Shown in pieces: positions 23,057 through 46,767 of a stretch of 64,000 nt of DNA. Location: contig CAIRYW010000027.1 of the NCBI GenBank assembly GCA_903882905.1, forward strand, positions 1,031 through 65,030, read 5' to 3'. The first letter of the stretch is position 1, and every line of letters starts with the position of its first letter. A program made the position numbers and the translations under genes. The stretch is from an uncultured bacterium. Its GTDB lineage: Bacteria > Patescibacteriota > Minisyncoccia > Phycocordibacterales > CAIRYW01. The notes beneath the pieces are model-generated. The model ran no database searches. It was not told where the DNA came from and saw only the letters and a list, made by a program, of their open reading frames with translations.

Positions 23057-23076
23057 AATAATTAAAGTTGAAAAAA

Positions 23077-23108
23077 GCCCCGTTCGCCTAGGCAGACGGG
23101 GTTTTTTT
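23077..23108 (+). terminator. Rho-independent terminator after fusA
   Basis: agccccgttcgcctaggcagacggggt followed by T7. Confidence 0.65.
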
Positions 23109-23144
23109 CTTGTATTTTTTTCTAATTACTTTAATATAAGTTTT

Positions 23145-23585: not shown

Positions 23586-23702
23586 GTCACATCGAATTGA
23601 AATCTCGTAAATTTCAAACCCGGATTTAGTCCGGTATTTTTTTTGCCAAAATTGACTTTTTTGTTGAATAAAGATAATTTTACTTTGGTAAATTTGAAAA
23701 TC

Positions 23703-23963
23703 ATGAAAACCAATCCTAATGAAAGAGAGTTGCACGAGTTTGGTGCACTCTGTGCAAAACTCGGAGGAATCTTCGGGTCTGACCTGCATAGAATCCTCGA
23801 ATCAATCAATGGGTCTTTTGAGGCAAAAAGGCTCATTGGTCTTGCGCTTGGACAAGAAAAAAACGAGGTGTTTCTAAAAAAGGTTGATCCTGATGACATG
23901 TCTTTCGTAGGGCTTTGTTTCAGCGACATCTATGCTCCGCTGTGCGAAGTTTTCTTCAGTTAA
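23703..23963 (+). CDS. Hypothetical small protein
   Basis: ORF MKTNPNERELHEFGALCAKLGG…. A competing minus-strand ORF is low-complexity. Weak call. Confidence 0.2.
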   Translation: MKTNPNERELHEFGALCAKLGGIFGSDLHRILESINGSFEAKRLIGLALGQEKNEVFLKKVDPDDMSFVGLCFSDIYAPLCEVFFS

Positions 23964-24330
23964 TAATTCTCTGTTCCTTCCAATCTGGCGACCATTCAAT
24001 GGCGTCATTTTTTTTGCAAAAAAAATCGCCAGAGAAATTATTTTTTCTTATGGCGCTTTAGTTTTTTGGGATCGTGAACCCATTTGTATCTTAGTGCCTC
24101 ATGAATGGTGAAGATACAATAGGTTTCTCTAGGGAATTCAATTTTTTCAGGAATTTTTTTGAAGGAACTGAACCTTCTTGCTTTTTTGGGTTTTTCAACC
24201 CGACCCCTTTTTTTACCGAGAAACTTTTCAGTTTTTAAGAACATTACCACGTAAAAAATTTCCATAGCTAAGAATATTCTATTAAATTTAATCCCAATAA
24301 GCGAATAATAATTTTTTTTGTATAAAAAAT

Positions 24331-24349
24331 GGAGCGCTGTTGGCGCTCC
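24331..24349 (-). terminator. Rho-independent terminator for the minus-strand tyrA/ACT gene
   Basis: ggagcgcc aaca ggcgctcc, followed by T-run on the minus strand. Confidence 0.55.
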
Positions 24350-24967
24350 TTAGGAAACAACTTTTATAGAAACATCTCGCCACTTTTCGATTTCTTCCAG
24401 CGTAAGTCGCACAGCGTCCGAAGATTTTGAGGATTCGAAACTGATTGAAAATTGTAGCTGGTTTCCGTCGATTGCAGCAAAGTTGAAACCTGTCAGGTTG
24501 ATGTCTCGTTTACCGAATGCTCTGAGTATTCTTTCTCCAAGTCTTGGTTTGTCGTCTGCCTTGGAGTACTCGAGAATGATTGAGTTCTTGCCGTAGATCG
24601 TTTTGGTTACAGCAATCTGACGTTGAAAAAGGGTGTCGGCTTCTTTGATCACATCGTGACCAAAGTGGGCTTTAGCTTTTGCAAAGAGATTGCGTAGTCC
24701 TCGGCGATTTTTCTTTTCAATCATCCGCACAAGTCTGGTGTCCAGTTTGACTCTCCTTTGAAAAGTTTCCAGCGAAACTGGATTTTCGAGGAGCATGTCG
24801 ATGTAGAGATCGGCATTATGGTTCAGAAGTCGTCCCATGAGCGAGAACATCACTCGGTAGAACGGACTTGTGAAAGCCAGACTTTTTTGGACTGAGATTC
24901 CCATCTCTGCGATCATTACCGCATTGATGAGGTTACTCATATGAGGGTTAGTTTGCACGCCCTGCAT
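24350..24967 (-). CDS. C-terminal part of a prephenate dehydrogenase-like protein plus ACT regulatory domain. It is in frame with, and separated by a single TAA from, the upstream ORF
   Basis: ACT-like C-terminus (…RLGERILRAFGKRDINLTGFNFAAIDGNQLQFSISFESS…). Same reading frame as 24980-26071. Confidence 0.5.
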   Translation of the reverse strand: MQGVQTNPHMSNLINAVMIAEMGISVQKSLAFTSPFYRVMFSLMGRLLNHNADLYIDMLLENPVSLETFQRRVKLDTRLVRMIEKKNRRGLRNLFAKAKAHFGHDVIKEADTLFQRQIAVTKTIYGKNSIILEYSKADDKPRLGERILRAFGKRDINLTGFNFAAIDGNQLQFSISFESSKSSDAVRLTLEEIEKWRDVSIKVVS

Positions 24968-24979
24968 ATAAATATCATG

Positions 24980-26071
24980 TTAGGTTGGATTGCTCCACTC
25001 GATTTTCATCTCAGTTCTTGCGAGCAGATTAACCACCCAAGTTTTCCATTCAGGTTTTTTAAGCCTTGCTGGACAAACAACCATTGTTTGGTCGTTAAAC
25101 GACAGACTTGGGGCAAACATCGGGTGAAACCCGATCACTTGAGCTTTGCTTTTGAGCATTTCGCGTACCGCGGGACTTTTGACGGAAGTGATATCCATCG
25201 CAAGTTTGTCCTCGGTCAGGTATTTGGCTACCGATCGGATAACACTGGGTGTTTTTCTAATCGGCAAAGCGAAAGCAACCACATCAGCCTTTCTCGCCAC
25301 ATCTGAATTTTTCAGACCGGTCTTTTCTTTGGGATCAGACCAAATGACGTTTAAACCAATTCCAGTAGCGAATTTCTCGAGTGCTTTTCCAAATTTCCCG
25401 TGGCCGATGATGCCAAAGGTCAAAGCTTTTACTTCGGCTTTGTTTTCCAGAAGTTGGAAGGTTGTTATGTTCCTTTGAATGTCCTGGATATTTTCGGCAA
25501 GCACACGAAGTCCGTAGGGTTTTGCTGCACGTTTAGGTGAGATTGATCCAAACGCTTTAGTTTTGCCGGAAACGAATTTCGCCGCATAGCCTGTGGAATC
25601 GCAGTTACTTCTTTTGTTTGCGGTGATACCGATGCTGTCGAGGAATTTTCCGCACTGACCGATTGCCTCTTCTTTTGAGAAGACTCTTTCCAACTGGTCG
25701 ATTGAGGTGATGTTTTTTGGGACAAGCAAGCAGTGATTGACCCGAAGTTTGAGAGTGTCGACGACTGAAAAATCGTAACCCAAACCACGAAGTCTATTTA
25801 CCTCATCCGTTACGCTTTTTACTTCTCCTTTTGTAGAGTTGTGGATCGGGATGACTCCAAATCCAGGGCTTTCAGATAGTTGCTTGAGCAGGTTGTTGTG
25901 ACTCCCGCAAAAAACAATCTCATACTCACCTTTTTTCCATCCCCGTCGGCGGATGAACTCACAAGCTGCATCATGCCCATTTGTGAAGGCATCAAGTACT
26001 AATATTCGTTTTTTCATAGGTTTTTCTTTGTTTCCTGATGTAAATGAACTGCTCCGTCTGGAGCAAAACAC
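24980..26071 (-). CDS. Prephenate dehydratase domain fused to prephenate/arogenate dehydrogenase NAD-binding domain (PheA-TyrA-like). It terminates at an in-frame TAA
   Basis: PDT signature (…GVIPIHNSTKGEV…, …LRVLAENIQD…) followed by TyrA-like GIIGHGKFG Rossmann and …VIGFHPMFAP…. About 45% GC. Confidence 0.6.
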   Translation of the reverse strand: MFCSRRSSSFTSGNKEKPMKKRILVLDAFTNGHDAACEFIRRRGWKKGEYEIVFCGSHNNLLKQLSESPGFGVIPIHNSTKGEVKSVTDEVNRLRGLGYDFSVVDTLKLRVNHCLLVPKNITSIDQLERVFSKEEAIGQCGKFLDSIGITANKRSNCDSTGYAAKFVSGKTKAFGSISPKRAAKPYGLRVLAENIQDIQRNITTFQLLENKAEVKALTFGIIGHGKFGKALEKFATGIGLNVIWSDPKEKTGLKNSDVARKADVVAFALPIRKTPSVIRSVAKYLTEDKLAMDITSVKSPAVREMLKSKAQVIGFHPMFAPSLSFNDQTMVVCPARLKKPEWKTWVVNLLARTEMKIEWSNPT

Positions 26072-26252
26072 TTGCTTCAGAGGTTTATGTTTGAATATTG
26101 ATGTTTAGTACCTTAAAAGTCAATTATTTCGGAAAACGTTTGACATTAAAAAACAAAGTAGTAGCATTTAAATATAAATGATTAACAAATTTTATTTTCA
26201 GTATTTCTTTAAGAACTGCCCGAAAGGCTAGGTTTTTTGATTTTTAATCTTA

Positions 26253-26279
26253 AAGCCCCGCCTTTCAGGCGGGGCTTTT
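26253..26279. terminator. Bidirectional terminator (agccccgcc tttca ggcggggct), reverse complement of the element at 18563
   Basis: Identical arms in opposite orientation. Confidence 0.65.
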
Positions 26280-26313
26280 GTTTGTCGGAAAGTGCGTCTA
26301 ATATCAGGCTCAC

Positions 26314-26748
26314 TTGTCGGGAAACAAAAAAATGAAAAATATTTTAATTTTGAAGGTTAGTGGGATCGCTGACCTTCGACAGTACATTGCCGCCATTGGA
26401 GAATTTCTTCAAGGTATTTCCTTGTTTATTGTCCCTGCAGACTCGCAGGTACAACTGAATGGGGACGTTCCGGATGGCGTGGTTGTTTTAAAGCATGAGG
26501 AAGAAGGTCGTGAGTGGAGGATTATCCAGGTCGGCAATACCTGCCGATTTGAAAAGCCACCAGTCACCGTGCCGATTGTCCACTTATACAGACCTGCGTT
26601 TTCTACTATTATCAAGTTGCTCGAGCGCTTGAATTCAGAGGACGAAGAGAAAATATCTGGAGTCTATCTGGAGAATTCTCTGCCAGGAATTGCCGGGTCT
26701 ATTGCTTCGGCCCTTGTGAAATTTGGTCCTCAGCCCAAACAACCCTAG
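26314..26748 (+). CDS. Hypothetical protein (GC-rich, about 50%)
   Basis: 144-aa ORF. The likely start is MKNILILKV at 26332. It is followed by two hairpins. Confidence 0.35.
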   Translation: MSGNKKMKNILILKVSGIADLRQYIAAIGEFLQGISLFIVPADSQVQLNGDVPDGVVVLKHEEEGREWRIIQVGNTCRFEKPPVTVPIVHLYRPAFSTIIKLLERLNSEDEEKISGVYLENSLPGIAGSIASALVKFGPQPKQP

Positions 26749-26777
26749 TTAGCGGTCCCTCGACCGCTATTTTTTAT

Positions 26778-26817
26778 ACCCAGCACCTTCTTTTTTTCCA
26801 AAAAAGAAGGTGCTGGG
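26778..26817. repeat. Palindromic element cccagcaccttcttttttt cc aaaaaagaaggtgctggg (18-bp stem)
   Basis: Shares its 'cccagcacctt…aaggtgctggg' arms with the hairpin at 7143-7183. Confidence 0.7.
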
Positions 26818-27040
26818 TTGACATCTTTTTGACTATTGTGATAGTATGACCATCACGCAATTTGCGGTGTTTTTTGTATTTTAAATAGATTCAAATGGCA
26901 CCAAGTTTGCTATAAGAAGGTAAAAAAATCTTCGCCCGAAGCGAAGATACGGTTTCTAAGTTACTTCTGAAATGACCTTCGCGCTTATTTCAGAGGAGAA
27001 TTAGAACCAAAATTATTAAAGTAACTATTAAATAAATCAT

Positions 27041-28231
27041 ATGGCAGAAGCTTTTGATAGATCAAAGCCTCACGTAAACGTAGGTACAATTGGTCACGTA
27101 GACCACGGAAAGACAACTCTTACCGCGGCTATTTTGAGTGTTCTTAGTAGAAATGGAAACGACGTAAAACTTAAGGCAGTTGATCAAATTGACAACGCGC
27201 CAGAAGAAAAGGCTAGAGGAATTACAATTAACCTTTCACACAACGAGTATTCAACTGCAACTCGTCACTACGCTCACATTGATGCTCCTGGACACGCCGA
27301 CTACATCAAAAACATGATTACTGGTGCTGCCCAAATGGACGGTGCAATTCTTGTTATTGCTGCAACTGACGGTGTTATGCCACAAACAAGAGAACACGTT
27401 CTTCTTGCAAAACAAGTAGGTGTGCCAAAGATGATTGTTTTCTTAAACAAATGTGACATGGTTGATGATAAAGAACTTATTGACCTTGTTGAAGAAGAAG
27501 TAAGAGAGCTTCTAGAGAAGCAAGGTTTTGACAAAGATTGTCCAGTTATTAAGGGTTCAGCTCTTAAAGCTCTTGAATCAAAGGACAACAATGATGAATG
27601 GGCAAAGAAAATCCTAGAACTCGTTGATGCTCTTGATACATACATTCCAGTTCCTGTGCGCGAAACCGACAAACCTTTCCTTATGCCTATTGAAGATATT
27701 TTCTCAATTGAAGGTAGAGGAACAGTGGTTACAGGAAGAATTGAAAGAGGGCTTATCAAAGTTGGTGAAGAAGTTGAAATTATCGGTATCAAACCAACAG
27801 CAAAGACTACAGTTACTGGAATTGAAATGTTCAATAAACAACTTACTGAAGGAATGGCTGGAGATAACGCCGGAATACTTCTAAGAGGTACAAAGAAAGA
27901 AGATTTGACACGTGGTCAGGTTCTAGCAAAGACCGGTTCAGTAACACCACACACAGAATTCACATCAGAAGTTTATATCTTGAAGAAAGAAGAAGGAGGA
28001 AGACACACACCATTCTTTACAGGATACAAACCACAGTTTTACATCAGAACAACTGACGTAACAGGAGAAGTAACACTAAATGCTGGTGTAGAAATGGTTA
28101 TGCCAGGAGATACAGTTACATTTAACGTTAAATTGGTTGCGCCTGTAGCCCTTGAGGAAAAGCAAAGATTTGCTATCCGCGAAGGTGGAAAGACTGTAGG
28201 TGCTGGAGTTGTCACAAAAGTGATCAAGTAA
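27041..28231 (+). CDS. tuf: Elongation factor Tu
   Basis: [22 protein letters not shown] motifs. 396 aa. Confidence 0.95.
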
Positions 28232-28235
28232 ATTA

Positions 28236-28330
28236 AGGAGCAAAGCGACTATAATTTCTTGACCATGTTAAATCTTTTGCGAAGCAAAAGAAAAATCTAA
28301 AGATTTTTATTTAACAGGGTTAGGATTATC
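28236..28330 (+). promoter_or_regulatory. Conserved structured intergenic element (aggagc..gcgactataatttcttgaccatgttaaat … tttatttaacagggtt) between tuf and rpsJ. Possible S10-operon leader / internal promoter
   Basis: A near-identical 5' segment and the 'ccMtgttaaat…atttaacaggg' long-range complement recur at 46768-46925. The 5' segment alone recurs at 38363-38400. Confidence 0.45.
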
Positions 28331-28340
28331 TAAGCTCACT

Positions 28341-28721
28341 TTGTTCGCAAAGAAAATCCTAATGGTTACAAAAAAAACAACAAAAACAAAAGAGACAAAG
28401 AAGCCTACTGAGACGGTATCTAAACTTCGCATTCGTGTTAGAGCCTACGATCACAAAATTCTTGATGCATCAGTGCGTCAGATTATGGACACAGCCCTTA
28501 GATTTGATGCAAAAGTTTTAGGACCAATTCCGCTTCCTACAGAAATTAGAAAATACACAGTTAATAGAGCATCTTTCGTTTACAAAAATGCCAGAGAACA
28601 GTTCGAGATGCGAACACACAAAAGATTGATCGATATTGAAAACCCAAATGGAAAAGTAATTGAAGCACTTTCAAATCTTTCTCTTCCATCTGGAGTAAAT
28701 ATCGACATAAAAATGATGTAA
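28341..28721 (+). CDS. rpsJ: Ribosomal protein S10 (with short Lys/Thr-rich N-terminal extension; the start may be the internal M at 28362)
   Basis: The …[24 protein letters not shown]… core is classic S10. Confidence 0.9.
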
Positions 28722-30327: not shown

Positions 30328-31170
30328 ATGAAAAGCTACAGACCATACACAAAATCAAGAAGACACATGACGAACGTTTCTTTTAGAGGCGTTTTGACTA
30401 CGAATGAACCCACAAAATCTTTGACAAAAGGTTTCCAGAGATCAGTTGGTAGAAATAACTTGGGAAGAGTAACAACTCGCCACAAGGGAGGAGGTCACAA
30501 AAGACTTTTCAGAGATGTTGATTTTACTTACAACAAAAAAGATATCCCAGCTAAAATTGCATCAATAGAATACGATCCAAACAGATCAGGTTTCATTGGA
30601 CTTGCAGTTTATCGCGACGGAGAAAAAAGATATATTCTTATTCCAAAATCAGTAAAAGTTGGTGATACTTTTGTAGTTTCAGAAAAAACAGACATCAAAC
30701 CAGGAAACAGAATGAGCTTGAAAAACATTCCTGTAGGTGCTTTTGTTTATAACATTGAAATTAAACAAAATGGAGGAGCAAAACTTGCAAGATCAGCTGG
30801 AATTTATGCTGAAGTTGTTGCTCAAGATGAAGGATTTACTTCAATTAAAATGCCATCAACTGAAGTTAGAAAAATTGTTGACGCTTGTTTTGCCTCACTA
30901 GGTGAAGTATCAAACGAAGAACACCATCTTCGAAACTTCGGAAAAGCTGGAAGAAGCAGATGGATGGGTATCAAACCAACCGTTCGCGGAACTGCTATGA
31001 ATCCAGTAGACCACCCATACGGAGGAGGAGAAGGAAGACAAGGACGAGGAACACGAAGAGCAAAATCAGTTTACGGAAAGCCAACAGGAAAGGGACAGAA
31101 ATCAAGAACACCAAAGAAATACTCAAACAAATTCATTGTTTCAAGAAGAGTTGTTGGGAAGAAACGATAA
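30328..31170 (+). CDS. rplB: Ribosomal protein L2
   Basis: …HKGGGHKRLFR…, …PVDHPYGGGEG… motifs. Confidence 0.95.
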   Translation: MKSYRPYTKSRRHMTNVSFRGVLTTNEPTKSLTKGFQRSVGRNNLGRVTTRHKGGGHKRLFRDVDFTYNKKDIPAKIASIEYDPNRSGFIGLAVYRDGEKRYILIPKSVKVGDTFVVSEKTDIKPGNRMSLKNIPVGAFVYNIEIKQNGGAKLARSAGIYAEVVAQDEGFTSIKMPSTEVRKIVDACFASLGEVSNEEHHLRNFGKAGRSRWMGIKPTVRGTAMNPVDHPYGGGEGRQGRGTRRAKSVYGKPTGKGQKSRTPKKYSNKFIVSRRVVGKKR

Positions 31171-31177
31171 TAAATCT

Positions 31178-31219
31178 TTTGGAGGTAATTCCTCCTCTTG
31201 AGAGGTTTTTCCTCCAAAA
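31178..31219. repeat. Nested hairpin element ttggaggtaattcctcctcttgagaggtttttcctccaa (copy 1)
   Basis: 39/41 identical to 42548-42588. Outer arms cttggagg/cctccaag, inner cctc(c)tc..gagagg stem. Confidence 0.7.
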
Positions 31220-31257
31220 ATTGTCCTCTCGAAAATTTTTTGACGAAATAACAGGAA

Positions 31258-31284
31258 AGCCCCGCCTCCGGCGGGGCTTTCCTT
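31258..31284 (+). terminator. Rho-independent terminator (agccccgcc tcc ggcggggct)
   Basis: GC stem with flanking A/T runs. It ends the S10 operon segment before the island. Confidence 0.6.
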
Positions 31285-31357
31285 ATATTTGTACCAATTT
31301 ATGGTTTTCGACACCACATAATCACGAATTTTAACTAATTTTGTTTAAATTTTATCT

Positions 31358-31431
31358 TAATATCGTGAAAATTAGCCTTTTTTCTCTGTTTTTCACGATT
31401 ATGTTGACAATATCGTGAAAAGGACTATAAT
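31358..31431 (+). promoter_or_regulatory. Sigma70-like promoter (TTGACA-16-TATAAT) of the fic gene, overlapped by three copies of a 12-nt operator-like motif (atatcgtgaaaa x2 direct, ttttcacgat inverted)
   Basis: ttgaca at 31404-31409, tataat at 31426-31431, ATG at 31438. Motif copies at 31358-31372, 31390-31400 and 31408-31422. Confidence 0.5.
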
Positions 31432-31437
31432 TTCATT

Positions 31438-32310
31438 ATGGCAAATACATTAAATGCTTTAAATAAAATCAAAAATCTAAGGGAAAGGTATTACAAAGTA
31501 TCAACTGGCAAAGAATCTTTATTAAAACTTATAAGCGAGACAGAAATTCCTGAACAAGTTTATAACTCTAACGCTATAGAAAACAGCACTCTTTCTCTTG
31601 AGGAGACAGAAAAAATACTTTTACAAATTGATCTTGATCGCTATATCTCAGAGCGAGAAATATTTGAAGCAAAAAATCTTGCACGAGTTGTTTCATATAC
31701 AGAAAAAAAAGCCAAAGAGCAAGAGCTTACTCTTGATGTCATTTTATCACTTCATAAAATGCTTATTTCAAATATTCGAGATGATATTGCTGGAAGATTT
31801 CGTATTAATAATGAATATGTTCGTGTTGGAAGCCATATTGCTCCAAAGCCAGCGGAAGTAATATCTCGATTAGAAAAAACAATTGCAGAATATAATGCCT
31901 CGAGCCATGAAAATATTGTGAAGCGTATTGCAAGATTGCATTTAGAGTTTGAATACACACATCCATTTTGTGACGGAAACGGAAGAATTGGTCGTGTTAT
32001 AAATAATTATTTACTTATACGAGAAGGATTTGTACCGATTAATATTAAATTCATCGATAGAAAAAAATATTATGATGCATTCAGAGAGTTTGATGAAAAA
32101 GGTAGTGCATCAATAATGGAGGAAATTGTTGCAAAAGCTATTACGAATAGTTATCACAAGAGACTTGCTTATTTAGAGGAAAAAGAGATTGTAACTCTTT
32201 TTGAATATTCCAAAAGAAAAAAAATATCTCATTCAAATTTAATTAATAAAGCAAATCGACAAACTATTGAAGCTTTTCTCGAAAAAGGTATTTGGAAAAT
32301 TGGTATTTAA
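31438..32310 (+). CDS. Fic-domain protein (putative AMPylase) with N-terminal auto-inhibitory motif (class II Fic)
   Basis: Fic core HPFCDGNGRIGR (HPFx[D/E]GNGRxxR). N-terminal SNAIEN fits the inhibitory [S/T]xxxE[G/N] motif. Confidence 0.85.
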   Translation: MANTLNALNKIKNLRERYYKVSTGKESLLKLISETEIPEQVYNSNAIENSTLSLEETEKILLQIDLDRYISEREIFEAKNLARVVSYTEKKAKEQELTLDVILSLHKMLISNIRDDIAGRFRINNEYVRVGSHIAPKPAEVISRLEKTIAEYNASSHENIVKRIARLHLEFEYTHPFCDGNGRIGRVINNYLLIREGFVPINIKFIDRKKYYDAFREFDEKGSASIMEEIVAKAITNSYHKRLAYLEEKEIVTLFEYSKRKKISHSNLINKANRQTIEAFLEKGIWKIGI

Positions 32311-32399
32311 AAACCACTAATCACTATCCATTACACCCGCACACTATCTACTATATTCAATCCATTGCTTTTATCTGTGGGGGGGGGTAAAATCTAACT

Positions 32400-32855
32400 A
32401 TGTTAAAAAACTTTTTCTTAGACTGGAAGGGAAAATTATTATTAATTTGTTTACTAGGTATTGGAGGATCAGTTTTATATTTTTCAGATACTCAAATTTC
32501 TAATGCCCAAGCAATGGGAGGTGGGGGATATAGTTGTCCTCCTCCCACTGTTGGTTGGAATGGGACATGTATTTGTCCTGTGGGGGCTGATGCAGCACTT
32601 CAAAAAAGATGCGACCAAGCTCTTCAGGGTAATAAAACTATTGATGCACCCACAAAAAGAATTCCTATCACATCTATAGCTCCTACTTTAAAATCACAAT
32701 GGAGTTATAACGTAAGTTTTGATGCCAATGATTTTAAAGCTGCCCCAACTGATGCACATGGTAATCCTTATGGTTCTAGCCGTATTCCCTCATTGAGTAA
32801 TGTTATAGATTTTAAGAATCTAACGATCGGTATTGTTGTGGGAGTTAAATTTTAA
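32400..32855 (+). CDS. Hypothetical secreted/membrane-anchored small protein
   Basis: N-terminal hydrophobic segment LLLICLLGIGGSVLYF. Cys-containing. 151 aa. Confidence 0.4.
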   Translation: MLKNFFLDWKGKLLLICLLGIGGSVLYFSDTQISNAQAMGGGGYSCPPPTVGWNGTCICPVGADAALQKRCDQALQGNKTIDAPTKRIPITSIAPTLKSQWSYNVSFDANDFKAAPTDAHGNPYGSSRIPSLSNVIDFKNLTIGIVVGVKF

Positions 32856-32866
32856 TTTAATAAAAA

Positions 32867-34165
32867 ATGAAAAATAATTATTCAAAATTAGTTTCAATAG
32901 CAACCCTTGTTTTATGTATCTTAGTATTTCCATCTTTATCTTCTGCTCAAACCGTTAATAATTTCTCCGTTAAAAATCTAAATTATTATTATGGTACAGA
33001 CCCAAAAACCAAAATAAAAGATGCGGTGGTGACTTTTGATTTAGATATAACCGCAACAAGTTCAGACTTCAAGTTCTACAAAGACGGACTTGCGGTCATT
33101 AGTTCTGCAAGTTCTGTGGGGGATACAAGTATACAGACCTATACACCAAACATGGTTGATAATGGTAGTTATTATACGATTCATGCGGGAGATACAGGGA
33201 CTTTAAACATTATGACCACGTGGGACGCAAAATACGTACCCGTACTTAATTCTTCAACAAAGTTCTATTTTGCTTTTTCTGAAAAAAATCTTCCTATTAC
33301 TATACCACCAATCACCATCCTCACCCCAACCAATGGAACCAACTGGAAGATAGGATCAAATCAATCATTTGTACTTGCGAAGAATAACATCCCAACAACT
33401 GCCTATATGCAAGTGAGTCTTACACCATCTTCTGGTGGTTTTGGTGCCATGCTCTCAATTTCTCTAACAAATTCTAGTTCTAACACTAACTTTCCGTTTG
33501 CTGTGCCAACAAGTCTCCAATCAGGAGGACTTTTAAGACAACTTACTCCCGGAGCATATAAATTAAAAGTAGTTTTCTATGATAAAGGTTTTTGTTCATC
33601 TTGTGGTCAACCCGCAACTAATATCATAGGACAATCAGATGGTAATTTAACTGTAAATATTTTAGCTGCAAGCTGTACACCAAAACCAACTCTGAATTGT
33701 ACGGCAGATTATAGTCCAGTTTGTGGTTCTGATGGAAAAACCTATGGTAATGCTTGCCAAGCTACAAAATTATGTGTGACGTATACAAACGGAGCTTGTG
33801 CTCCTGCACCATCTCCCACCCCAACCACTACTCCAACTCCTACTCCAACACCTTTACCATCTCCTTCTCTCGGACAATGTTATTCTGCAACACCTAAAAA
33901 TTATCCAGCTTGTTGCAATATAAATAATGATTCAAGTGCAAAATCTATTTGGCAATCTGGGGTTGCAGGTAACTGGGCGAAGTTTCCAAAAAGTTGTAGT
34001 GAGTATCCCGGTTATACAATTACGCCATCAAAAACAATAACTCCTCCAGCACTCAACACAATTTCTTTGAATCAAAACAGCGCACCAACTCAAACCGCAA
34101 GTGCATATGATTCTATTAAGATTCTTCTCAATCAGATTTCAAACACTTTGGATTCTCTAAAATAA
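32867..34165 (+). CDS. Secreted protein with C-terminal Kazal-type serine-protease-inhibitor domain and Pro/Thr-rich linker
   Basis: Signal peptide (…VFPSLSSAQT). Kazal signature C..C.ADYSPVCGSDGKTYGNACQA..LC. Followed by PSPTPTTTPTPTPTP. Confidence 0.7.
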   Translation: MKNNYSKLVSIATLVLCILVFPSLSSAQTVNNFSVKNLNYYYGTDPKTKIKDAVVTFDLDITATSSDFKFYKDGLAVISSASSVGDTSIQTYTPNMVDNGSYYTIHAGDTGTLNIMTTWDAKYVPVLNSSTKFYFAFSEKNLPITIPPITILTPTNGTNWKIGSNQSFVLAKNNIPTTAYMQVSLTPSSGGFGAMLSISLTNSSSNTNFPFAVPTSLQSGGLLRQLTPGAYKLKVVFYDKGFCSSCGQPATNIIGQSDGNLTVNILAASCTPKPTLNCTADYSPVCGSDGKTYGNACQATKLCVTYTNGACAPAPSPTPTTTPTPTPTPLPSPSLGQCYSATPKNYPACCNINNDSSAKSIWQSGVAGNWAKFPKSCSEYPGYTITPSKTITPPALNTISLNQNSAPTQTASAYDSIKILLNQISNTLDSLK

Positions 34166-34200
34166 AAATAAAGATTAAATCGAAGTAGTATCAAAAAACA

Positions 34201-34230
34201 AAAAACCGCCAAAAAACGGTTTTTTGTTTT
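34201..34230 (+). terminator. Terminator-like hairpin (aaaaaccg ccaaaaaa cggttttt)
   Basis: It overlaps the ORF-track start of the next gene, whose true start is therefore probably the ATG at 34257. Confidence 0.5.
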
Positions 34231-35993
34231 TTGATAATTATGAGATAATTTTACTAATGAATTCAAAGAATTTATTTAGATCGTCTTTAATTACATTTTC
34301 TCTTTTTGTTATTTTCTCTTTTCTTCTTATTCCAAAAACTGCTTCTGCGGATAATGGTTTTTTTAGTTTTTTAAATTCTTTTTTTCCACAATCAAGTCAA
34401 TCACAGACTCCTTCTTTAAGTAGTGAAGATTTAGCAAAACTTATTCAACCTTCAATTGTACGTATTGTCAGAGAGACAAAAGGTAATGTTGTTTTACATT
34501 CCGATTTTGCTCTTGATTACTTGAATCTAAAGGTTCTGACTGTACCCTTAAGTAAACCAATTAATATTCCTGTTGACGATATAGTTACTGGAACTGGTTT
34601 CATGATTACTCCAGAAGGACACATAATGTCTAATTCGCACGTTGTTTCAAGTCAAGAATCTGTCAATAATGTAGTAGCCCAGTTAATACTCTATCTAATT
34701 AAAAAAGATGGATCCAAACTTACCGTTGATGAGCAAAATACAATAATTAATAATGCAAGCAGTACTGAAGGATTAAAAGCATATGAAAAATTAGGAACAG
34801 ATTTAACAGATTCAATGTTGAAGGATGTTACTCTTGAGGCAACTACTACAATTACTGTCTTAAATCCAAAATCCACTGCAGATAATTTAGCGGATTTTAT
34901 TAAAGACGGATTTCCAGCAACAGTTGTTAGTGTAAATGATAATTTTTCAAAAGATCAAAGAGATGTTGCTATAATAAAGATTAATAAGGATAATCTCCCT
35001 GCCATTCCGGTTTCAAGTGATGTTTCGACTTCAAGTTTAGTTACGGGCCAAAAAATATTTGCTTTTGGTTTTCCTTCTACGGCAGATCTTAATAAAAAAC
35101 TTGGACATGATATTGTCGTGCCAACATATACTTCTGGCACCATAAGCGCATTAAAATCCTCTGATGCTGGAGATTTTCAAATAATTGAAACAGATACAAA
35201 AATATCTTCTGGTTCGAGTGGAAGCCCGGCTTTTGATGAAAATGGAAATGTGATTGGAATCATGACATATGCAACAAGCAATTCAGATAGTAACGGCGAT
35301 ACTTTTGCTTTCGCCTTACCAATTGGAGTAATCAAGCCAATTGTTGATAGCGCTAATGTTATTTCTGGACCAGGGGCTCTCTATGAGCACTTTACAAAGG
35401 GTCTAAATTTACTTTCAAAAAAACATTGTGCATTGGCAATAACTGAATTTGAATCAGCAAAAAATACTAATGGAGAATTTCCTGTTAATACAAGTTTCAT
35501 TGATTCATATATGAATCAATGTAAGACAATGCAAGCTAATGGATTAGCTCTTGATACAGAGCAGCAGCAGTTTCTTCAAAACATAAAACCTTATCAATTA
35601 TGGGTTCCAGTTTTGTTAGTAATATTTATTTTCGTAATATGCCTTATCTTTGTAATTGTTTTCTTTTCAAAAAAAATGAAAAAAGAAGAAGAGGAAATAT
35701 ACGCACTAAGAGCTAGAGGTCAAATGTCATCAGTTAGTGTTCCGCCGACAATAACTCCTGTTCTGATTCCAAAAGTTGAAGTAAAAGTTGAAAAAAAGCC
35801 AGAAGAAGTTAGTGTAGAAAAAAATACACCGCCAGCTGTAAAAGGGAGGGTAGAAATGATAGTAGATTATATAAATAAGAGTAAGACAGAGAATAAAGAA
35901 CTTGGATTAACTGTAATTGATCTAAGAAGCCAAGGATATAGCGATGATGAAATTCAGCAAGGATTTAATTTGGTAAATAAAGTAGACCTTTAA
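34224..35993 (+). CDS. Membrane-anchored trypsin-like (S1/HtrA-like) serine protease with cytoplasmic C-terminal tail
   Basis: His (GTGFMITPEGHIMSNSHVV), Asp (DVAIIKI) and Ser (GSSGSPAF) catalytic-triad contexts. N-terminal signal/TM and a second TM (LWVPVLLVIFIFVICLIFVIVFF) before a charged tail. Confidence 0.7.
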   Translation: MFFDNYEIILLMNSKNLFRSSLITFSLFVIFSFLLIPKTASADNGFFSFLNSFFPQSSQSQTPSLSSEDLAKLIQPSIVRIVRETKGNVVLHSDFALDYLNLKVLTVPLSKPINIPVDDIVTGTGFMITPEGHIMSNSHVVSSQESVNNVVAQLILYLIKKDGSKLTVDEQNTIINNASSTEGLKAYEKLGTDLTDSMLKDVTLEATTTITVLNPKSTADNLADFIKDGFPATVVSVNDNFSKDQRDVAIIKINKDNLPAIPVSSDVSTSSLVTGQKIFAFGFPSTADLNKKLGHDIVVPTYTSGTISALKSSDAGDFQIIETDTKISSGSSGSPAFDENGNVIGIMTYATSNSDSNGDTFAFALPIGVIKPIVDSANVISGPGALYEHFTKGLNLLSKKHCALAITEFESAKNTNGEFPVNTSFIDSYMNQCKTMQANGLALDTEQQQFLQNIKPYQLWVPVLLVIFIFVICLIFVIVFFSKKMKKEEEEIYALRARGQMSSVSVPPTITPVLIPKVEVKVEKKPEEVSVEKNTPPAVKGRVEMIVDYINKSKTENKELGLTVIDLRSQGYSDDEIQQGFNLVNKVDL

Positions 35994-36007
35994 TTTCACT
36001 ACCCACA

Positions 36008-36043
36008 TTACCCAAGGACCGTCCTTGGGTAGTTTATCCACAG
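36008..36043. repeat. 36-nt repeat attacccaaggaccgtccttgggtagtttatccacag (copy 1). It contains the perfect palindrome cccaaggaccgtccttggg
   Basis: 33/37 identical to 61920-61956. Confidence 0.65.
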
Positions 36044-36267
36044 CACCTCTTATTTTCGCACCAGTAGGTGATACCCGGGAGCGGTATAAGTCGTTTCACT
36101 CCTAAGAAAATAAAGTCGTCCACAGGGTATTTATTGCTAATCATATTCCAAGCTAGTACTGAGACTAATTTGACACAAAGCTTAATTTTGTATAGTATTT
36201 AGCGCACGCTCTTACAAGGGCTATTTATTTTATTCTGACTATATAAGTCGGAACAAAAACTTAATTT

Positions 36268-36621
36268 ATGTCACGATCAGTCAAAAAAGGACCATATGTC
36301 GACGAAAAGCTTCTAAAGAAGATTGCCGGCAAAAAACCACAGGAATCTGGGGTTATTAAGACTTGGGCGAGAGCAAGCCAGATTGCACCAGAAATGGTGG
36401 GATTTATCTTTGGCGTCCACAACGGAAAATCACATATAGAAGTTTTTGTCACCGAGGATATGGTAGGTCACCGACTCGGTGAATTTTCTTTAACAAGAAA
36501 ATTCGTTAAACACGGAGGAAAAATGCAAAAAGAACAAGATTTAGCAAAGAAAGATGCTGAACTTGCAGCTGCAAAAAGTGCTAAAGCAGCAACCGAAACT
36601 CCAGTCGGAGCTAAAAAATAA
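36268..36621 (+). CDS. rpsS: Ribosomal protein S19 (with Ala/Lys-rich C-terminal extension)
   Basis: [19 protein letters not shown]… classic S19 N-terminus. Confidence 0.9.
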
Positions 36622-38132: not shown

Positions 38133-38375
38133 ATGAAAATTAACGAAATTAGACAAAAGAATAAAGAGCAAATAGAAAAGCTCATCCACGATCAAAGAGA
38201 AAAACTCAAGGATTTGATGTTTGGTTCTGCTGGAGCTCGTGAAAAAAATGTAAAACTTCAAAAGACTTTGAAAAAAGATATTGCAAGATTTATTACTGTT
38301 TTAAATGAAGTAAAGAAAGAAGTCGTAGTAGAAACAAAGAAAGCAGAGGTAAAAGTTAGTAAAATAAGGAGCTAG
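38133..38375 (+). CDS. rpmC: Ribosomal protein L29
   Basis: Helical 80-aa protein, …LRMQ.A.G.L… type, in the expected position. Confidence 0.8.
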   Translation: MKINEIRQKNKEQIEKLIHDQREKLKDLMFGSAGAREKNVKLQKTLKKDIARFITVLNEVKKEVVVETKKAEVKVSKIRS

Positions 38376-38559
38376 CGACTATATTTTACTAACCCTAACA
38401 AATTTTTTTAAACAAATTTACAAAATTATGAAAATCAATACCACATACAACATATTGAAAATAAAAATCAGTTTGCCAACTGATTTTTGTGGTGATTTAA
38501 ATAAAAAAACTTGCGAGGGTCATTATTTTACTAATTCACTACGCTCATAAGAAAAATAT

Positions 38560-38820
38560 ATGAAAATCAAATCAGAAAAAACAGTGAAAGTTTCAAAGGG
38601 CAAGATCCTAGAAGGAGTTGTCGTTTCAGATAAGATGAAAGATACTTGCAGTGTTGCTGTTGAACGTTATGTTAAGCTTCCAAAATACGGAAAATATGTC
38701 ACAAGAACAAAAAAGTATCTTGCTGACGACAAAGGAAACACAAAGAAAATTGGAGATAAAGTAACAATTCAGGAATGTTCACCGATTTCAAAGAGAAAGT
38801 CATTTAAAGTAATTAATTAA
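38560..38820 (+). CDS. rpsQ: Ribosomal protein S17
   Basis: …GVVVSDKM.KT..V.VER…HP.YGK… S17 OB-fold. Confidence 0.9.
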   Translation: MKIKSEKTVKVSKGKILEGVVVSDKMKDTCSVAVERYVKLPKYGKYVTRTKKYLADDKGNTKKIGDKVTIQECSPISKRKSFKVIN

Positions 38821-40017: not shown

Positions 40018-40048
40018 ACCGCGAAGTGGAAAACCTTTGCGGTTTTTT
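40018..40048 (+). terminator. Terminator-like hairpin after rplE (aaaccgc…gcggttt + T-run)
   Basis: A 7-bp stem and T6. It overlaps the ORF-track start of the next gene, suggesting that gene starts at the MKKYF ATG at about 40121. Confidence 0.45.
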
Positions 40049-42529
40049 ACTATGTGTATGATAGAATTTACACAGTGGTTTACTATTAATTGGCGAAAAA
40101 TAATCTTAAATTTTTTTATGAAAAAATATTTTAGAATCTTGCTTAGTGCATTAGTTATTAGTACATCTTTTTTTCTATCTCCTCAGTCTCTTTTTGCACA
40201 GCAAACAGCGACTTCAACTGATGGTTTATCCGATCAACATTTCACTACAGTCAATGTAATTGATGAGCTGTTTCAAGATAAAGCATATGTGATAGGTGAT
40301 ACAGTTAACGGTAGTTTTGTATTAAAGAATACCAACACCTATGATGTACCGGAAGTTTATTATGTAATGTCAATTTTAACAGGGTTTGATGAAAACACCC
40401 TTAAGGCAAAAGGACAATTTGGTGATACCGAAAGACAAGGGCCTATTTTTGTCTCAAAGAATTCAGATAAAACAATAAATTTTTCCTACAAAATTCCTCA
40501 GTTTTTTGACAACACCCAAAAAGGAGAAAAGATTGTACTTCACGTTGAAGCATATTCATCTTCTGGCGTGAGAATGGGGTGGTTTGATAAAGAAATAAAA
40601 ATAGAAAATCTGACAAAACAATTAGCTGAGGTTTTTAATACTAGTATTGAGGTTAATAATAAAGAATTTACTCCAAAGCAAGGCCCGACTGTTCTAGATG
40701 GACAGAAAGCAAATTTTAATGTCGTTCTATACAATAGCAGTTCTTCCGATGTAACTATTTTCCCTGAGATAACAATTCATGATCGCCAACCATCAACTCC
40801 AGTTATCGGAAATAAAACTTATGATCCAATAGTTCTTCCTGCAGGTTTGTATGTTGAGGAAAGTTTTGAGCTTCCACAATTCGACAATTTTAAAGGAGTC
40901 TACGCTGGAAAATTTCGTTTTACCGATGGTAAAGATAACGATGTAGCTGAAGGTGTATATCTTCGATATATTGTTGGTGAAGATTATGGGACCATTCAGT
41001 CTGTGACTATTGATAAAACATCTGTAGCGGAAGGAGACATATTTAATTCTTCTGTTGTATACACAGGACCAGCCACCAATATCAACACATCTCAACCAAC
41101 ACTTGGAGAAGGAACGATGAATGTCAGTATTACAAATGAAAAAGGGGAAATTGTTGCAAGTTCAACACAAAACATTGCTCTAGATACTAATACTGACAAT
41201 AAAACAGTTAATTTTAATCTTGAAGCTCAAAGAGATGCTTCACAACTTTTTGTTTCAGTTATTATGAAAAAAGATAATCAAATACTTGCCACTTACTCAT
41301 CTCGTCTCACGGATCCAGAAAAAGTATTACCTAAACAAAGCCAAAATTTCTCTCTCTATATAATTGCTGCTATTTTGTTTGGAATTATTATCTTAATTAT
41401 TTTAATTGCACTTTTTCTTAAAATGAAAAAACGAAATACAATAATGTTTCTCGCTTTAGGCTCTTTATTTGTTGGGGGTATGTTTGCACCAGGTCATGCT
41501 TCTGCAGCCCTTTATGCTTTGAGCATTAACAGTCCATATGATGGGCAACAAGTAAATGCTGGAGCAACATTTTCTTCTTCGGGTTCTGGTGGTATTAAGG
41601 TATGTGGAAATGAATCAGCTAACTTTACTTTAAGTCTTGGATTTCAAGGTCAGGGGCGTTCAGGTAGTTGTTCAATGGCATCGCACTCTTCTTGTAGTGA
41701 TAAAAGAGTTTGTGATAGCCATGGCCATAATTGTCACACTAAGCAGGTTTGCCAAGGCGATGAAAATTTTTATAATCTCCCTTGTAGTGTAGGGACAACT
41801 TTTACCGCTCCACAAGTACCTGGCTCGTATAAATTATATTTGAGTTATGGAGCTAGTTTTTCTGCTGGTTGGGGTAATGCGTCAGAGTCTGGTTCTACAT
41901 TCGTTAACGTAAATGTAGTCTGTCCTACTGGAACAACTTGTGCAAATTCGCCAGTTCCACTACAAAGCTTAACTGGTGGCGGTGGAGGCAACGCTACCAC
42001 CACCTCTATCTGCACCCCAAAACTCGCCTGCTCAGGAACAAAAATAACTGATGGATGTAATCCAGATATTGATTGTCAGGCTGTTAATGGAGCAGGTTCA
42101 ACATGTAGTCCTACAACTCTTACATGTACAAAATCAGCCGCACAAATATATATAGATACAAACGGAGGTACTAACCTTCCATCAGGACAAGTCGTAATAA
42201 AAGATTTTAAAGCTAATACCATCAATCCATATAATTCAACTAACGGAACCGGAGGAAATTGCAGTCCAGTCTTTAACCTATTAACAGAAGACAAATACTC
42301 AACCTGTACTATCACTGGATCAGCTCAAGGTGATCAAACATACACATATCCCATTGTTACACCTAAGACATTGAGCGACAGTAAAGTTAAGAGCGAAACA
42401 CAGTACAAATTAACTTGTGGTGAAAACCTCCCTGACCCAAAAACAGGAGCAACAACTACCTTAACTGGTACCTCTACCAAATATGCTACTTGTTACATCA
42501 ATGCTAGCTTTAGTGAGGTGAATCCGTAG
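40037..42529 (+). CDS. Large secreted/surface protein inserted in the ribosomal cluster. It has an N-terminal signal peptide, a central pair of hydrophobic segments, and a C-terminal Cys/Gly/Thr-rich domain
   Basis: Signal LLSALVISTSFFLSPQSLFAQQ. Central IIAAILFGIIILIILIALFL then MKKRNTIMFLALGSLFVGGMFAPGHASA (a second signal-peptide-like segment). C-terminal region has many Cys and GGGG runs. Confidence 0.5.
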   Translation: MRFFTMCMIEFTQWFTINWRKIILNFFMKKYFRILLSALVISTSFFLSPQSLFAQQTATSTDGLSDQHFTTVNVIDELFQDKAYVIGDTVNGSFVLKNTNTYDVPEVYYVMSILTGFDENTLKAKGQFGDTERQGPIFVSKNSDKTINFSYKIPQFFDNTQKGEKIVLHVEAYSSSGVRMGWFDKEIKIENLTKQLAEVFNTSIEVNNKEFTPKQGPTVLDGQKANFNVVLYNSSSSDVTIFPEITIHDRQPSTPVIGNKTYDPIVLPAGLYVEESFELPQFDNFKGVYAGKFRFTDGKDNDVAEGVYLRYIVGEDYGTIQSVTIDKTSVAEGDIFNSSVVYTGPATNINTSQPTLGEGTMNVSITNEKGEIVASSTQNIALDTNTDNKTVNFNLEAQRDASQLFVSVIMKKDNQILATYSSRLTDPEKVLPKQSQNFSLYIIAAILFGIIILIILIALFLKMKKRNTIMFLALGSLFVGGMFAPGHASAALYALSINSPYDGQQVNAGATFSSSGSGGIKVCGNESANFTLSLGFQGQGRSGSCSMASHSSCSDKRVCDSHGHNCHTKQVCQGDENFYNLPCSVGTTFTAPQVPGSYKLYLSYGASFSAGWGNASESGSTFVNVNVVCPTGTTCANSPVPLQSLTGGGGGNATTTSICTPKLACSGTKITDGCNPDIDCQAVNGAGSTCSPTTLTCTKSAAQIYIDTNGGTNLPSGQVVIKDFKANTINPYNSTNGTGGNCSPVFNLLTEDKYSTCTITGSAQGDQTYTYPIVTPKTLSDSKVKSETQYKLTCGENLPDPKTGATTTLTGTSTKYATCYINASFSEVNP

Positions 42530-42547: not shown

Positions 42548-42588
42548 CTTGGAGGTAAGTCCTCCTCTTGAGAGGTCTTTCCTCCAAG
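42548..42588. repeat. Nested hairpin element cttggaggtaagtcctcctcttgagaggtctttcctccaag (copy 2)
   Basis: Near-identical to 31178-31219. Confidence 0.7.
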
Positions 42589-42624: not shown

Positions 42625-42670
42625 ATGACAACCAAAAAGTCAAATTTTCAAAGGACAATCCTTTGAAAAT
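42625..42670. repeat. Perfect 21-bp-stem hairpin aaaagtcaaattttcaaagga caat cctttgaaaatttgactttt
   Basis: Perfect inverted repeat in the 360-bp intergenic region before rpsN. Flanked by other hairpins (cccgcttccgcgggg; ttgatgatttt…aaatcatcaa). Confidence 0.7.
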
Positions 42671-42888
42671 TTGACTTTTTTACTGTCGCTTGTTATCCTC
42701 TAAGGAAGCTCATTTTGAGCTTTTTTGTTTCCTTTAAGAAGGGACAGAATCGGGAGTACAGCGATTTGCTCATGTGGCACTTCATTACCCCTTAAACTTT
42801 TTACCGTTGTATTTCTGGGTTTTTCTCGGAATTTAACGGCAAAAAGTTTATAGGTTGATGATTTTCGCTAAATCCTAAATCATCAAAA

Positions 42889-43074
42889 ATGGCAAAAAAA
42901 TCAACAATTGCAAGAGCAAAGAAAACACCAAAATTCTCATCAAGAATAGTGAGAAGATGTTTCCGTTGCGGAAGAAAGCGCGGTTATATGCGCGATTTTG
43001 GTATGTGTAGAATCTGTTTTAGAGAAGCGGCTAATGAAGGTAAACTTCCAGGTATAAAAAAATCATCATGGTAA
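42889..43074 (+). CDS. rpsN: Ribosomal protein S14 (zinc-binding type Z)
   Basis: 61 aa with CxxC…CxxC (RCFRCGRK…GMCRICFRE). Confidence 0.9.
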
Positions 43075-46758: not shown

Positions 46759-46767
46759 GAAATTCAG

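Follow-up and report, generated by a model that had tools for sequence, protein, structure and literature searches.

The S10 ribosomal protein string is normally among the most conserved gene orders. Here, we analyze a 64,000-nt stretch of DNA (hereafter the window) from contig CAIRYW010000027.1, in which this string is split between rplB and rpsS by genes for a Fic protein, a small orphan protein (orf2), an exported protein with a Kazal domain, and a membrane-anchored S1 protease. We find that in Paceibacteria the rplB–rpsS junction is probably a gene slot that is open as a rule and quickly changes its content, and that the segment at 31172–36167 is its local filling, built stepwise. Since the junction is routinely open and its content changes quickly across the clade, the four genes are unlikely to be a purpose-built module of inhibitor, protease, and effector. 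The more interesting results are the clade-wide opening of specific junctions, with a promoter and leader for rpsS, and a Fic cassette that is ultra-conserved throughout the Candidate Phyla Radiation (CPR). Literature searches on split ribosomal operons in CPR returned no description of junction-specific opening, and those on CPR Fic proteins returned none of an ultra-conserved, CPR-wide cassette.

The rplB–rpsS junction in related genomes

The host is a Paceibacteria (Parcubacteria, CPR) metagenome-assembled genome (MAG), with an rplB 66 to 89% identical to those of MAGs labeled Paceibacterota, Zambryskibacteria, Nomurabacteria, and similar. We compared 81 loci: the 80 genomes closest in rplB (the best 80 of 457 confirmed rplB relatives) and one metagenome contig. 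Among the 73 informative loci, just 12 have rplB and rpsS no more than 150 bp apart. The gap measures 150 to 500 bp in 6 loci, 0.5 to 2 kb in 22, and more than 2 kb in another 22, with a maximum of 9.6 kb; in 11 further loci, rpsS is absent within at least 3 kb of rplB. Two other junctions are often open as well, rplE–rpsN (tight in 13 of 47) and rpsJ–rplC (tight in 33 of 71), and tuf–rpsJ is somewhat open (tight in 58 of 69). The remaining 17 junctions are tight in at least 90% of the genomes with both genes detected; for rplP–rpmC, the count covers the 33 loci in which the short rpmC could be found.

The content of the gap is as variable as its length. None of the 80 related genomes carries a homolog of any of the four window proteins at this junction; the sole exception among the 81 loci is an orthologous protease at the same place in the nearest relative, the European Nucleotide Archive (ENA) metagenome contig L083. 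Nearest relatives instead have genes for PG_binding, Kre9-like Ig, PKD, and CAP proteins and an alpha/beta hydrolase. One subclade has rplJ–rplL and a mechanosensitive-channel-type protein, another has rplS directly 3′ of rplB, and DUF3298 proteins and TruD occur elsewhere. A preliminary description, made from the letters of the window, had regarded the four genes as an unusual insertion into the S10 operon. Synteny agrees with it insofar as the genes are not a universal ancestral arrangement, but the insertion itself is not unusual: the junction is open in most related Paceibacteria and filled with unrelated content.

A predicted transcription boundary

Consensus-level predictions of terminators and promoters place a probable boundary between transcription units at the rplB–rpsS junction. 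A terminator hairpin lies directly 3′ of rplB in the window and in the relatives L083, L003, and L004. The predicted rpsS promoter of the window consists of TTGACA, a 17-nt spacer, and TAGTAT. Its counterparts in relatives are near-consensus (TTGACA, 16 to 19 nt, and a TA-rich −10 element) and are followed by a short hairpin and a U-rich tract. With a simple pattern search, such a promoter turns up in 34 of the 44 genomes whose gap is 500 bp or longer and in 0 of the 11 whose gap is shorter than 120 bp. The GC-rich hairpin behind the promoter (window 36199–36232) is present in about 30 of 37 genomes, where the stem sequence varies and the pairing is kept; its carriers are L003, L004, L006, L008, L083, and about 25 more loci. 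This leader hairpin has no Rfam match and could be an attenuator, a 5′ stabilizing stem-loop, or an autoregulatory leader for ribosomal proteins.

We propose that in this clade the S10 string has been cut into two transcription units, the first ending at the rplB terminator and the second beginning with rpsS under its own strong promoter and short leader hairpin. The stretch between terminator and promoter would then tolerate insertion, rearrangement, and loss, so that its content would come to differ from genome to genome.

Anatomy of the slot

Genes in the window follow the order tuf, rpsJ, rplC, rplD, rplW, rplB, four open reading frames (ORFs), rpsS, rplV, rpsC. In the canonical S10 operon, rpsJ-rplC-rplD-rplW-rplB-rpsS-rplV-rpsC-rplP-rpmC-rpsQ form one unit, and the contiguity of rplB and rpsS is lost here. 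According to the ORF listing of the window, the four ORFs, all on the plus strand, fill the 5097 bp between the end of rplB (31170) and the start of rpsS (36268), just as the preliminary description had reported. The features of the interval and its flanks are as follows.

30328–31170, plus strand: rplB (L2), the left conserved flank and closing gene of the predicted upstream transcription unit
31179–31217, plus strand: 39-nt nested-hairpin repeat; a second copy at 42549–42587 has 2 mismatches (0 copies expected by chance)
31253–31283: predicted intrinsic-terminator hairpin 3′ of rplB, with a 14-bp stem containing 10 GC pairs
31360–31431, plus strand: predicted Fic promoter and operator, with three boxes and a consensus promoter
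31438–32310, plus strand: Fic gene, 290 amino acids (aa), class II, FICD-like
32379–32387, plus strand: G9 homopolymer, 12 nt 5′ of the orf2 start
32400–32855, plus strand: orf2, a 151-aa orphan with an N-terminal hydrophobic segment
32867–34165, plus strand: Kazal-protein gene, 432 aa, predicted exported, modular
33674–33799, plus strand: Kazal domain, residues 270–311 of the 432-aa protein
34194–34256, plus strand: decayed terminator hairpin and conserved leader 5′ of the protease
34257–35993, plus strand: S1 protease gene, 578 aa, with an alternative upstream start (TTG) at 34224
36004–36043, plus strand: hairpin-containing repeat (TACCCAAGGACCGTCCTTGGGTA) 3′ of the protease; a second copy at 61917–61956 is 88% identical
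36170–36221, plus strand: predicted rpsS promoter and leader hairpin GCTCTTACAAGGGC, then a U-rich tract; the right conserved flank begins here
36268–36621, plus strand: rpsS (S19), which opens the predicted downstream transcription unit

The repeats and the terminator that had been noticed at the two edges of the segment are real. The stretch that holds the nested-hairpin repeat (31171–31295) has a fold z score of −7.1. This repeat is absent from all related loci and thus offers no hint as to mechanism. The window has no match in Rfam or tRNA scans, and the GC content, GC content at third codon positions (GC3), and tetranucleotide usage of the segment are ordinary for the host genome. Hydropathy analysis also upholds the topology proposed earlier: orf2, the Kazal protein, and the protease each have a signal-type N-terminus.

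Stepwise history of the segment

Comparison with L083, whose rplB and rpsS products are 92% and 96% identical to those of the window, delimits the variable segment. DNA identity is 87% up to position 31171 and 84% from 36168. Similarity halts exactly at the rplB stop codon and restarts at the −35 box of rpsS, leaving 31172–36167 as the variable segment proper. The 9.6-kb gap of L083 encodes the orthologous protease (61% aa identity) and five other genes, with no Fic gene, orf2, or Kazal domain among them. At the DNA level, the protease gene (71%) is all that the two gaps share.

The DNA around the protease indicates the order of events. In L083, a block consisting of a terminator hairpin plus TGTTTTTYRATAATCATGAGATAATTTT stands 3′ of rplB, and the whole block is repeated 5′ of the protease. 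L003 has a similar hairpin directly 3′ of rplB, without the trailing sequence, and the window has a decayed copy of the terminator-plus-leader block 5′ of its protease. On these sequence comparisons, the simplest history is that the ancestor had rplB, the terminator, and the protease, and that Fic, orf2, and the Kazal gene would have been inserted later, 5′ of the protease, in the lineage of the window. The older resident of the slot would thus be a signal-peptide-bearing, membrane-anchored, PDZ-less HtrA-like serine protease. The later arrivals between it and the rplB terminator would be the Fic cassette, the orphan orf2, and the orphan Kazal protein. From orf2 through the Kazal gene to the protease there is no intact intervening terminator, so these three genes probably share a transcript.

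The same segment might be read as a recently acquired mobile island, either an integrative element or a phage remnant, that landed by horizontal transfer. Its content is absent from relatives at the same site, short dispersed repeats lie at both of its ends, and a Fic ortholog in locus L097 is near an rve integrase gene and an AbiEii gene. Yet no integrase, recombinase, tRNA gene, or flanking direct repeat is present in or beside the segment, and the repeats at its borders are not a flanking pair, so that the segment lacks the defining marks of a mobile genomic island. Its GC, GC3, and tetranucleotides match the rest of the genome, L083 has an orthologous protease at the corresponding site, and the Fic gene has saturated synonymous sites against all compared orthologs, a GC content matching its host, and no close relative in the IMG/VR database. 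We regard a mobile island as highly improbable and stepwise filling of an open slot as the better description.

A Fic cassette conserved across CPR

The Fic protein matches Pfam Fic (E 1.3e-21) and carries the active-site motif HxFx(D/E)GNGRxxR as HPFCDGNGRIGR at residues 175–186. H175, P176, F177, D179, G180, N181, G182, R183, G185, and R186 are invariant among 36 Fic orthologs. The inhibitory motif (S/T)xxxE(G/N) is present in the N-terminal helix of the same polypeptide as S44-N-A-I-E48-N49, is also invariant in the orthologs, and aligns with TVAIEG of human FICD, the top Protein Data Bank (PDB) match (1.4e-20). These matches bear out the earlier assignment to class II. An AlphaFold2 (AF2) model with a low predicted local distance difference test score (pLDDT 63) has 56 Foldseek matches in the PDB at E ≤0.001. 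The 50 listed are all Fic-domain proteins, with FICD first (E 2e-8), making it the best PDB match by both sequence and fold.

Like human FICD (HYPE) and the bacterial class II proteins CdFic, SoFic, and BT_2513, the window protein has the core motif HPFxDGNGRxxR and an N-terminal inhibitory helix motif, which reads SNAIEN here and TVAIEG in FICD. It lacks the TPR and membrane anchor of FICD and has a distinct conserved C-terminal domain of 55 aa. Unlike the four known proteins, it belongs to a CPR-specific clade under unusually strong purifying selection, and a conserved operator travels with the gene.

This operator defines the cassette. The predicted Fic promoter consists of TTGACA (31404–31409), a 16-nt spacer, and TATAAT (31426–31431), a 12/12 match to consensus. 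Two direct boxes, ATATCGTGAAAA at 31360–31371 and 31410–31421, and one inverted copy, TTTTCACGAT at 31390–31399, follow the consensus (A/T)A(T/C)CGTGAAAA, and one of them lies between the −35 and −10 elements. The layout of boxes and promoter is conserved 5′ of the Fic orthologs in L091 and L095 (Moranbacteria) and L097 (Peregrinibacteria). DNA similarity among the orthologs (window 31360–32310, L091 4604–5565, L095 5925–6879, and L097 5950–6876) spans exactly from the first box to the Fic stop codon. Thus, the conserved unit is a cassette of promoter, operator, and gene.

Homology searches with the Fic protein return more than 8000 matches. Besides the query, the best 119 are 75 to 87% identical (all but one ≥79%) over 98 to 100% of the query, and come from Paceibacterota, Moranbacteria, Azambacteria, Staskawiczbacteria, Nomurabacteria, Peregrinibacteria, and other lineages. 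This conservation across CPR exceeds that of ribosomal protein L2. Against the three orthologs, the proportion of synonymous differences (pS) is 0.74 to 0.84, which is saturated, the proportion of nonsynonymous differences (pN) is 0.09 to 0.15, and dN/dS is below 0.05. Each copy matches the GC content of its own host genome. These sequence comparisons indicate that the divergence of the Fic clade is ancient and under very strong purifying selection. Recent horizontal spread was considered and rejected, given the saturated synonymous sites and the GC content fitted to each host. IMG/VR holds no close relative of the gene.

The Fic neighborhoods are unrelated to each other: in one, the gene is next to rpsT; in another, hydrolases and a second Fic gene accompany it; in a third, it adjoins a second Fic gene, and AbiEii and an insertion sequence (IS) are close by. 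Hydropathy analysis finds no hydrophobic segment or export signal. We suggest that the protein is cytoplasmic, that it probably acts as an AMP-transferase, and that its expression is probably repressed or autoregulated. The highly conserved C-terminal 55 aa are predicted to form a beta-alpha-alpha-alpha-beta unit, and this part has no Pfam or PDB sequence match that would identify it as a winged helix-turn-helix (wHTH). Since no sequence search identifies it as such and the model confidence is low, we propose autoregulation by Fic itself only tentatively. The proposal that Fic is a delivered effector is unlikely, as it has no export signal and a dN/dS below 0.05. A Fic protein with a co-conserved operator that surpasses L2 in conservation points to an important, unstudied AMPylation pathway in CPR.

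Defense genes are normally patchy and fast-evolving. Under one alternative, the segment would be an antiphage defense islet, with a SoFic-type single-gene Fic and the protease as a second component. Among PADLOC models, the Fic protein matches PDC-S04 (1.6e-32) and SoFic (1.1e-26), and the protease has weak matches to RT-Protease_XI (its protease part, 5e-13) and to PDC-M35A. In addition, the L095 and L097 Fic orthologs adjoin a second Fic gene, the latter also being near AbiEii and an IS. These PADLOC matches are domain-level only, reflecting the Fic and S1 folds, and an identity of 80 to 87% across CPR lineages at a dN/dS below 0.05 argues against a defense role for this Fic protein. The protease, for its part, is anchored in the membrane after export, its catalytic domain facing outward, and thus misfits an intracellular defense effector. 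We consider a defense islet very unlikely.

orf2 and the Kazal protein

The orf2 product has a hydrophobic segment at residues 11–31 and five Cys residues, four of them after that segment. A search of 1.84 billion representatives returned only the protein itself, and no family could be assigned. Upstream of orf2, the G9 tract at 32379–32387 is the sole run of eight or more G or C residues in the window and could be a slipped-strand switch for the exported-protein genes. Its length is identical in two independently assembled contigs, L001 and L002, that are 100% identical to the window. Phase variation at the tract was considered and set aside, as the three assemblies show no length variation.

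The Kazal protein is modular. From the N-terminus, it comprises a signal peptide, an N-terminal domain, a weak Ig-like middle, the Kazal domain, a Pro/Thr linker, a four-Cys segment, and a 27-aa tail. No full-length relative was found among 5.8 billion proteins, nor within CPR, and the non-Kazal parts have homologs only in island proteins of L083, each partial. The N-terminal domain is ~33% identical to the N-terminus of a 610-aa L083 protein, and the tail is 70% identical to the C-terminus of a 767-aa one. This tail motif, ..SAYDxIKILLxQISxxLxSLK, spans window 34084–34162 (residues 406–432) and L083 12872–12952. It is common to two otherwise unrelated exported island proteins and may be a sorting or anchoring signal.

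Several lines of evidence identify the Kazal domain. Kazal_1 matches with E 7.5e-7 and 29.5 bits, above the gathering cut-off of 21. The six-Cys pattern with its PVCG-x-DG-x-TY-x-N-x-C core is present as Cys 270, 278, 286, 297, 303, and 311 (SPVCGSDGKTYGNAC), with an atypical C4–C5 spacing of x5. The ovomucoid third domain (OMTKY3) matches at E 1e-6 to 2e-10. Alignment to OMTKY3 gives a reactive loop of C-T-A-D-Y with Ala at P1, and the supporting Asn in TYGNAC is conserved. The AF2 model (pLDDT 81) retrieves Kazal-type inhibitors at Foldseek ranks 1 to 43, nearly all with probability 0.97 to 1.00, followed by Kazal-like follistatin-type modules; target-normalized TM-scores reach 0.84. Thus, the earlier call of a Kazal domain survives structural prediction of the Cys-rich region. 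The accompanying statement that Kazal domains are rare in bacteria was too strong: a single-domain query finds at least 314 similar stretches in metagenomes, many of them on high-GC, gene-dense, prokaryote-like contigs.

With OMTKY3 and other Kazal (MEROPS I1) inhibitors, the domain shares the C1–C3 spacing and the PVCGSDGKTYGNxC core, and it keeps the OMTKY3-like P3 Cys, P2 Thr, P2′ Tyr, and supporting Asn. The model superposes on the inhibitor LDTI at 0.8 Å over 37 columns. Unlike known Kazal types, in which C4–C5 is x2 or x3, the window domain has x5 there, along with a short C-terminal part and P1 Ala. Unlike OMTKY3, it is a single domain embedded in a 432-aa bacterial surface-type protein. 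It most likely acts as a standard-mechanism serine protease inhibitor at the cell surface, and its target could be the neighboring protease or foreign or host proteases. We propose that a single canonical Kazal domain, with Ala at P1, was acquired by a modular surface protein that is itself an exported orphan. Literature searches on Kazal domains in CPR found nothing relevant. As a canonical Kazal domain within a surface protein of CPR, it offers a concrete candidate for how proteases may be controlled where symbiont and host meet.

The protease and its pairing with the Kazal protein

The protease matches Trypsin_2 (E 1.6e-22), and its chymotrypsin-fold triad, H128, D236, and S321, is invariant among 29 family members. 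It has a signal peptide, an insert of ~100 aa between His and Asp, and a Cys-containing helical region. Hydropathy places a single transmembrane helix at 452–470, followed by a 108-aa cytoplasmic tail, and this architecture is common to the family. The protein is thus the membrane-anchored, trypsin-like protease with a cytoplasmic tail that had been described, and its triad is intact on alignment. Its top PDB matches are Deg1, HTRA1, and DegP. It has no PDZ domain at E ≤0.1 in Pfam, which sets it apart from the HtrA/DegP family, and the NCBIfam models for HtrA, DegP, and DegS all score far below their cut-offs.

An S1C-type domain with a GxSGS/GP serine motif is common to HtrA, DegP, DegS, HTRA1, and the window protease. 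The last differs from the others in having no PDZ domain, the ~100-aa His–Asp insert, a C-terminal transmembrane helix, and a cytoplasmic tail. We suggest that it probably acts in envelope protein quality control or processing. The family is Patescibacteria-wide, and most members examined sit among housekeeping genes. In a different Patescibacteria genome (L084 8001–9659), a 37%-identical member stands between nusG and rplK, a normally contiguous pair. A subset of the family ends in a cytoplasmic C-terminal motif of ~45 aa, ..G(Y/W)S(D/E)xEIxxA/G.. (window 35850–35990, residues ~532–578; alignment columns 718–771), for which Pfam has no family.

HtrA-type proteases prefer small aliphatic P1 residues. 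The preliminary description proposed that the four genes form one host-interaction or self-protection module, an island in which the Kazal protein inhibits the adjacent protease and Fic is a delivered effector. The Kazal gene and protease are on the same strand, 91 bp apart, with only a decayed hairpin between them, both products are extracytoplasmic, and a canonical Kazal loop with P1 Ala fits the P1 preference of HtrA-type enzymes. A precedent also exists in eukaryotes, where a single chain of HTRA1, one of the best PDB matches of the protease, contains both an HtrA protease and a Kazal-like module (PMC7351529).

Comparative evidence points the other way. No Kazal neighbor stands beside any of six other members of the protease family, including the L083 ortholog at the same site, and the Kazal domain is absent from all other contexts of the family examined. 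Conversely, the hidden Markov model of the protease family detects no protease within 6 kb in any of the 80 metagenomic loci whose Kazal domains are most similar. With no full-length relative of the Kazal protein anywhere, the pairing is unique to one genome. HTRA1 (IGFBP and Kazal-like modules, a protease domain, and PDZ) has its Kazal module in cis, unlike the window, where it lies on a separate neighboring gene product. As for Fic, it has its own promoter, no signal peptide, 80 to 87% identity across CPR, saturated synonymous sites, and unrelated neighborhoods. Nor did the four genes arrive at the same time. No comparison thus supports the Kazal protein as cognate inhibitor of the adjacent protease, and the idea of a co-inherited module fails, with Fic found CPR-wide elsewhere and the protease in six other contexts without Kazal. 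We judge such a module unlikely. We conclude that the Kazal domain is most likely a true inhibitor module of the standard mechanism, taken up by a surface protein specific to this lineage.

Weighing and wider meaning of the open slot

Several points weigh against our interpretation of the junction. The survey spans the 80 genomes closest in rplB and one metagenome contig, and the terminators, the promoters, and the co-transcription are predicted at consensus level. Exported proteins are not significantly in excess in rplB–rpsS gaps (31% versus 24%, P = 0.11). The Kazal gene and the S1 protease may, given their adjacency, still work as a functional pair. DNA binding by the C-terminus of Fic is a putative activity, the model having a pLDDT of 63. 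Finally, the join between rplB and Fic depends on a single 70.5-kb contig, and L001 and L002 break inside the conserved Fic gene.

This last point raises the prospect of an assembly chimera, in which the conserved Fic gene caused a mis-join and part of the segment comes from another co-occurring CPR genome. The independent assemblies L001 and L002 end inside Fic and inside the protease, as expected for sequence shared among strains, and the rplB–Fic junction is seen on one contig only. Set against this, 32039–34975 (the 3′ end of Fic, orf2, the Kazal gene, and the 5′ part of the protease) is 100% identical in three assemblies, and L083 independently backs the placement of the protease between rplB and rpsS. 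The Fic gene, with a GC of 0.30 and GC3 of 0.17, is at the low end of the non-ribosomal genes of the window (GC 0.30 to 0.38, GC3 0.19 to 0.30). We attach very little weight to a chimera, and the conclusion that the junction is open is independent of this contig.

The claim that the slots are specifically sites for surface proteins was dropped, since the enrichment in the gaps is not significant; the theme holds only among the closest relatives. At rplE–rpsN, the excess of exported proteins is weak (P = 0.017).

The rplB–rpsS slot resembles chromosomal integration or variability hot spots in having conserved flanks and stepwise content that is specific to each relative. Unlike the usual hot spots, it lies inside the S10 string, recurs at three specific junctions across the clade, and is framed by a predicted terminator and a dedicated promoter and leader, with no integrase or att-like repeats seen.

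Phylogenomic markers, binning checks, and operon models treat ribosomal protein gene order as nearly universal and constant. Three routinely open junctions in a large CPR clade, with their own promoter and leader, bear on how expression is organized in reduced genomes and on tools that assume contiguity. Such slots are also natural places to search for fast-evolving surface proteins of episymbionts.

In a more speculative scheme, which we hold to be rather unlikely, rplB–rpsS, rplE–rpsN, and rpsJ–rplC would be selectively maintained docking slots of Paceibacteria, each framed by a terminator and a dedicated promoter with leader hairpin, in which envelope or host-interface genes are swapped in and out beside the strongest-expressed genes of a minimal genome. 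The Kazal protein and protease would then be a trans counterpart of HTRA1, possibly switched by the G9 tract, and Fic a near-essential, CPR-wide, FICD-like regulator that might control a chaperone as FICD does BiP.

Other features of the window

A second filled slot is present in the window between rplE and rpsN (S14, 61 aa, 42889–43074). Its ORF of 830 aa, at 40037–42529 with a likely start at 40118, encodes an exported protein that has a hydrophobic helix besides its signal peptide and a C-terminal half rich in Cys (19 residues); neither Pfam nor PADLOC has a family for it. Downstream of this gene lie the second copy of the nested-hairpin repeat (42549–42587) and a palindromic terminator with a 20-bp stem (42636–42678).

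The str operon is split too: ~4 kb (23057–27040) separates fusA (20915–23056) from tuf (27041–28231). This interval holds minus-strand prephenate dehydratase-like and dehydrogenase-like genes at 24350–24967 and 24980–26071. The gene at 24980–26071 has a GC of 0.45 and a GC3 of 0.45, versus window medians of 0.34 and 0.23, and may be a recent acquisition.

A three-copy intergenic element occurs after tuf (28228–28345), rpmC (38368–38565), and secY (46752–47080). The arms, GGAGC..GCGACTATAATTTCTTAACCCTGTTAAAT and TTATTTAACAGGGT, are conserved and pair as a long inverted repeat that encloses a variable loop, like that of a miniature inverted-repeat transposable element (MITE) or a structured RNA. 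The copy at rpmC–rpsQ widens a junction that is tight in all relatives.

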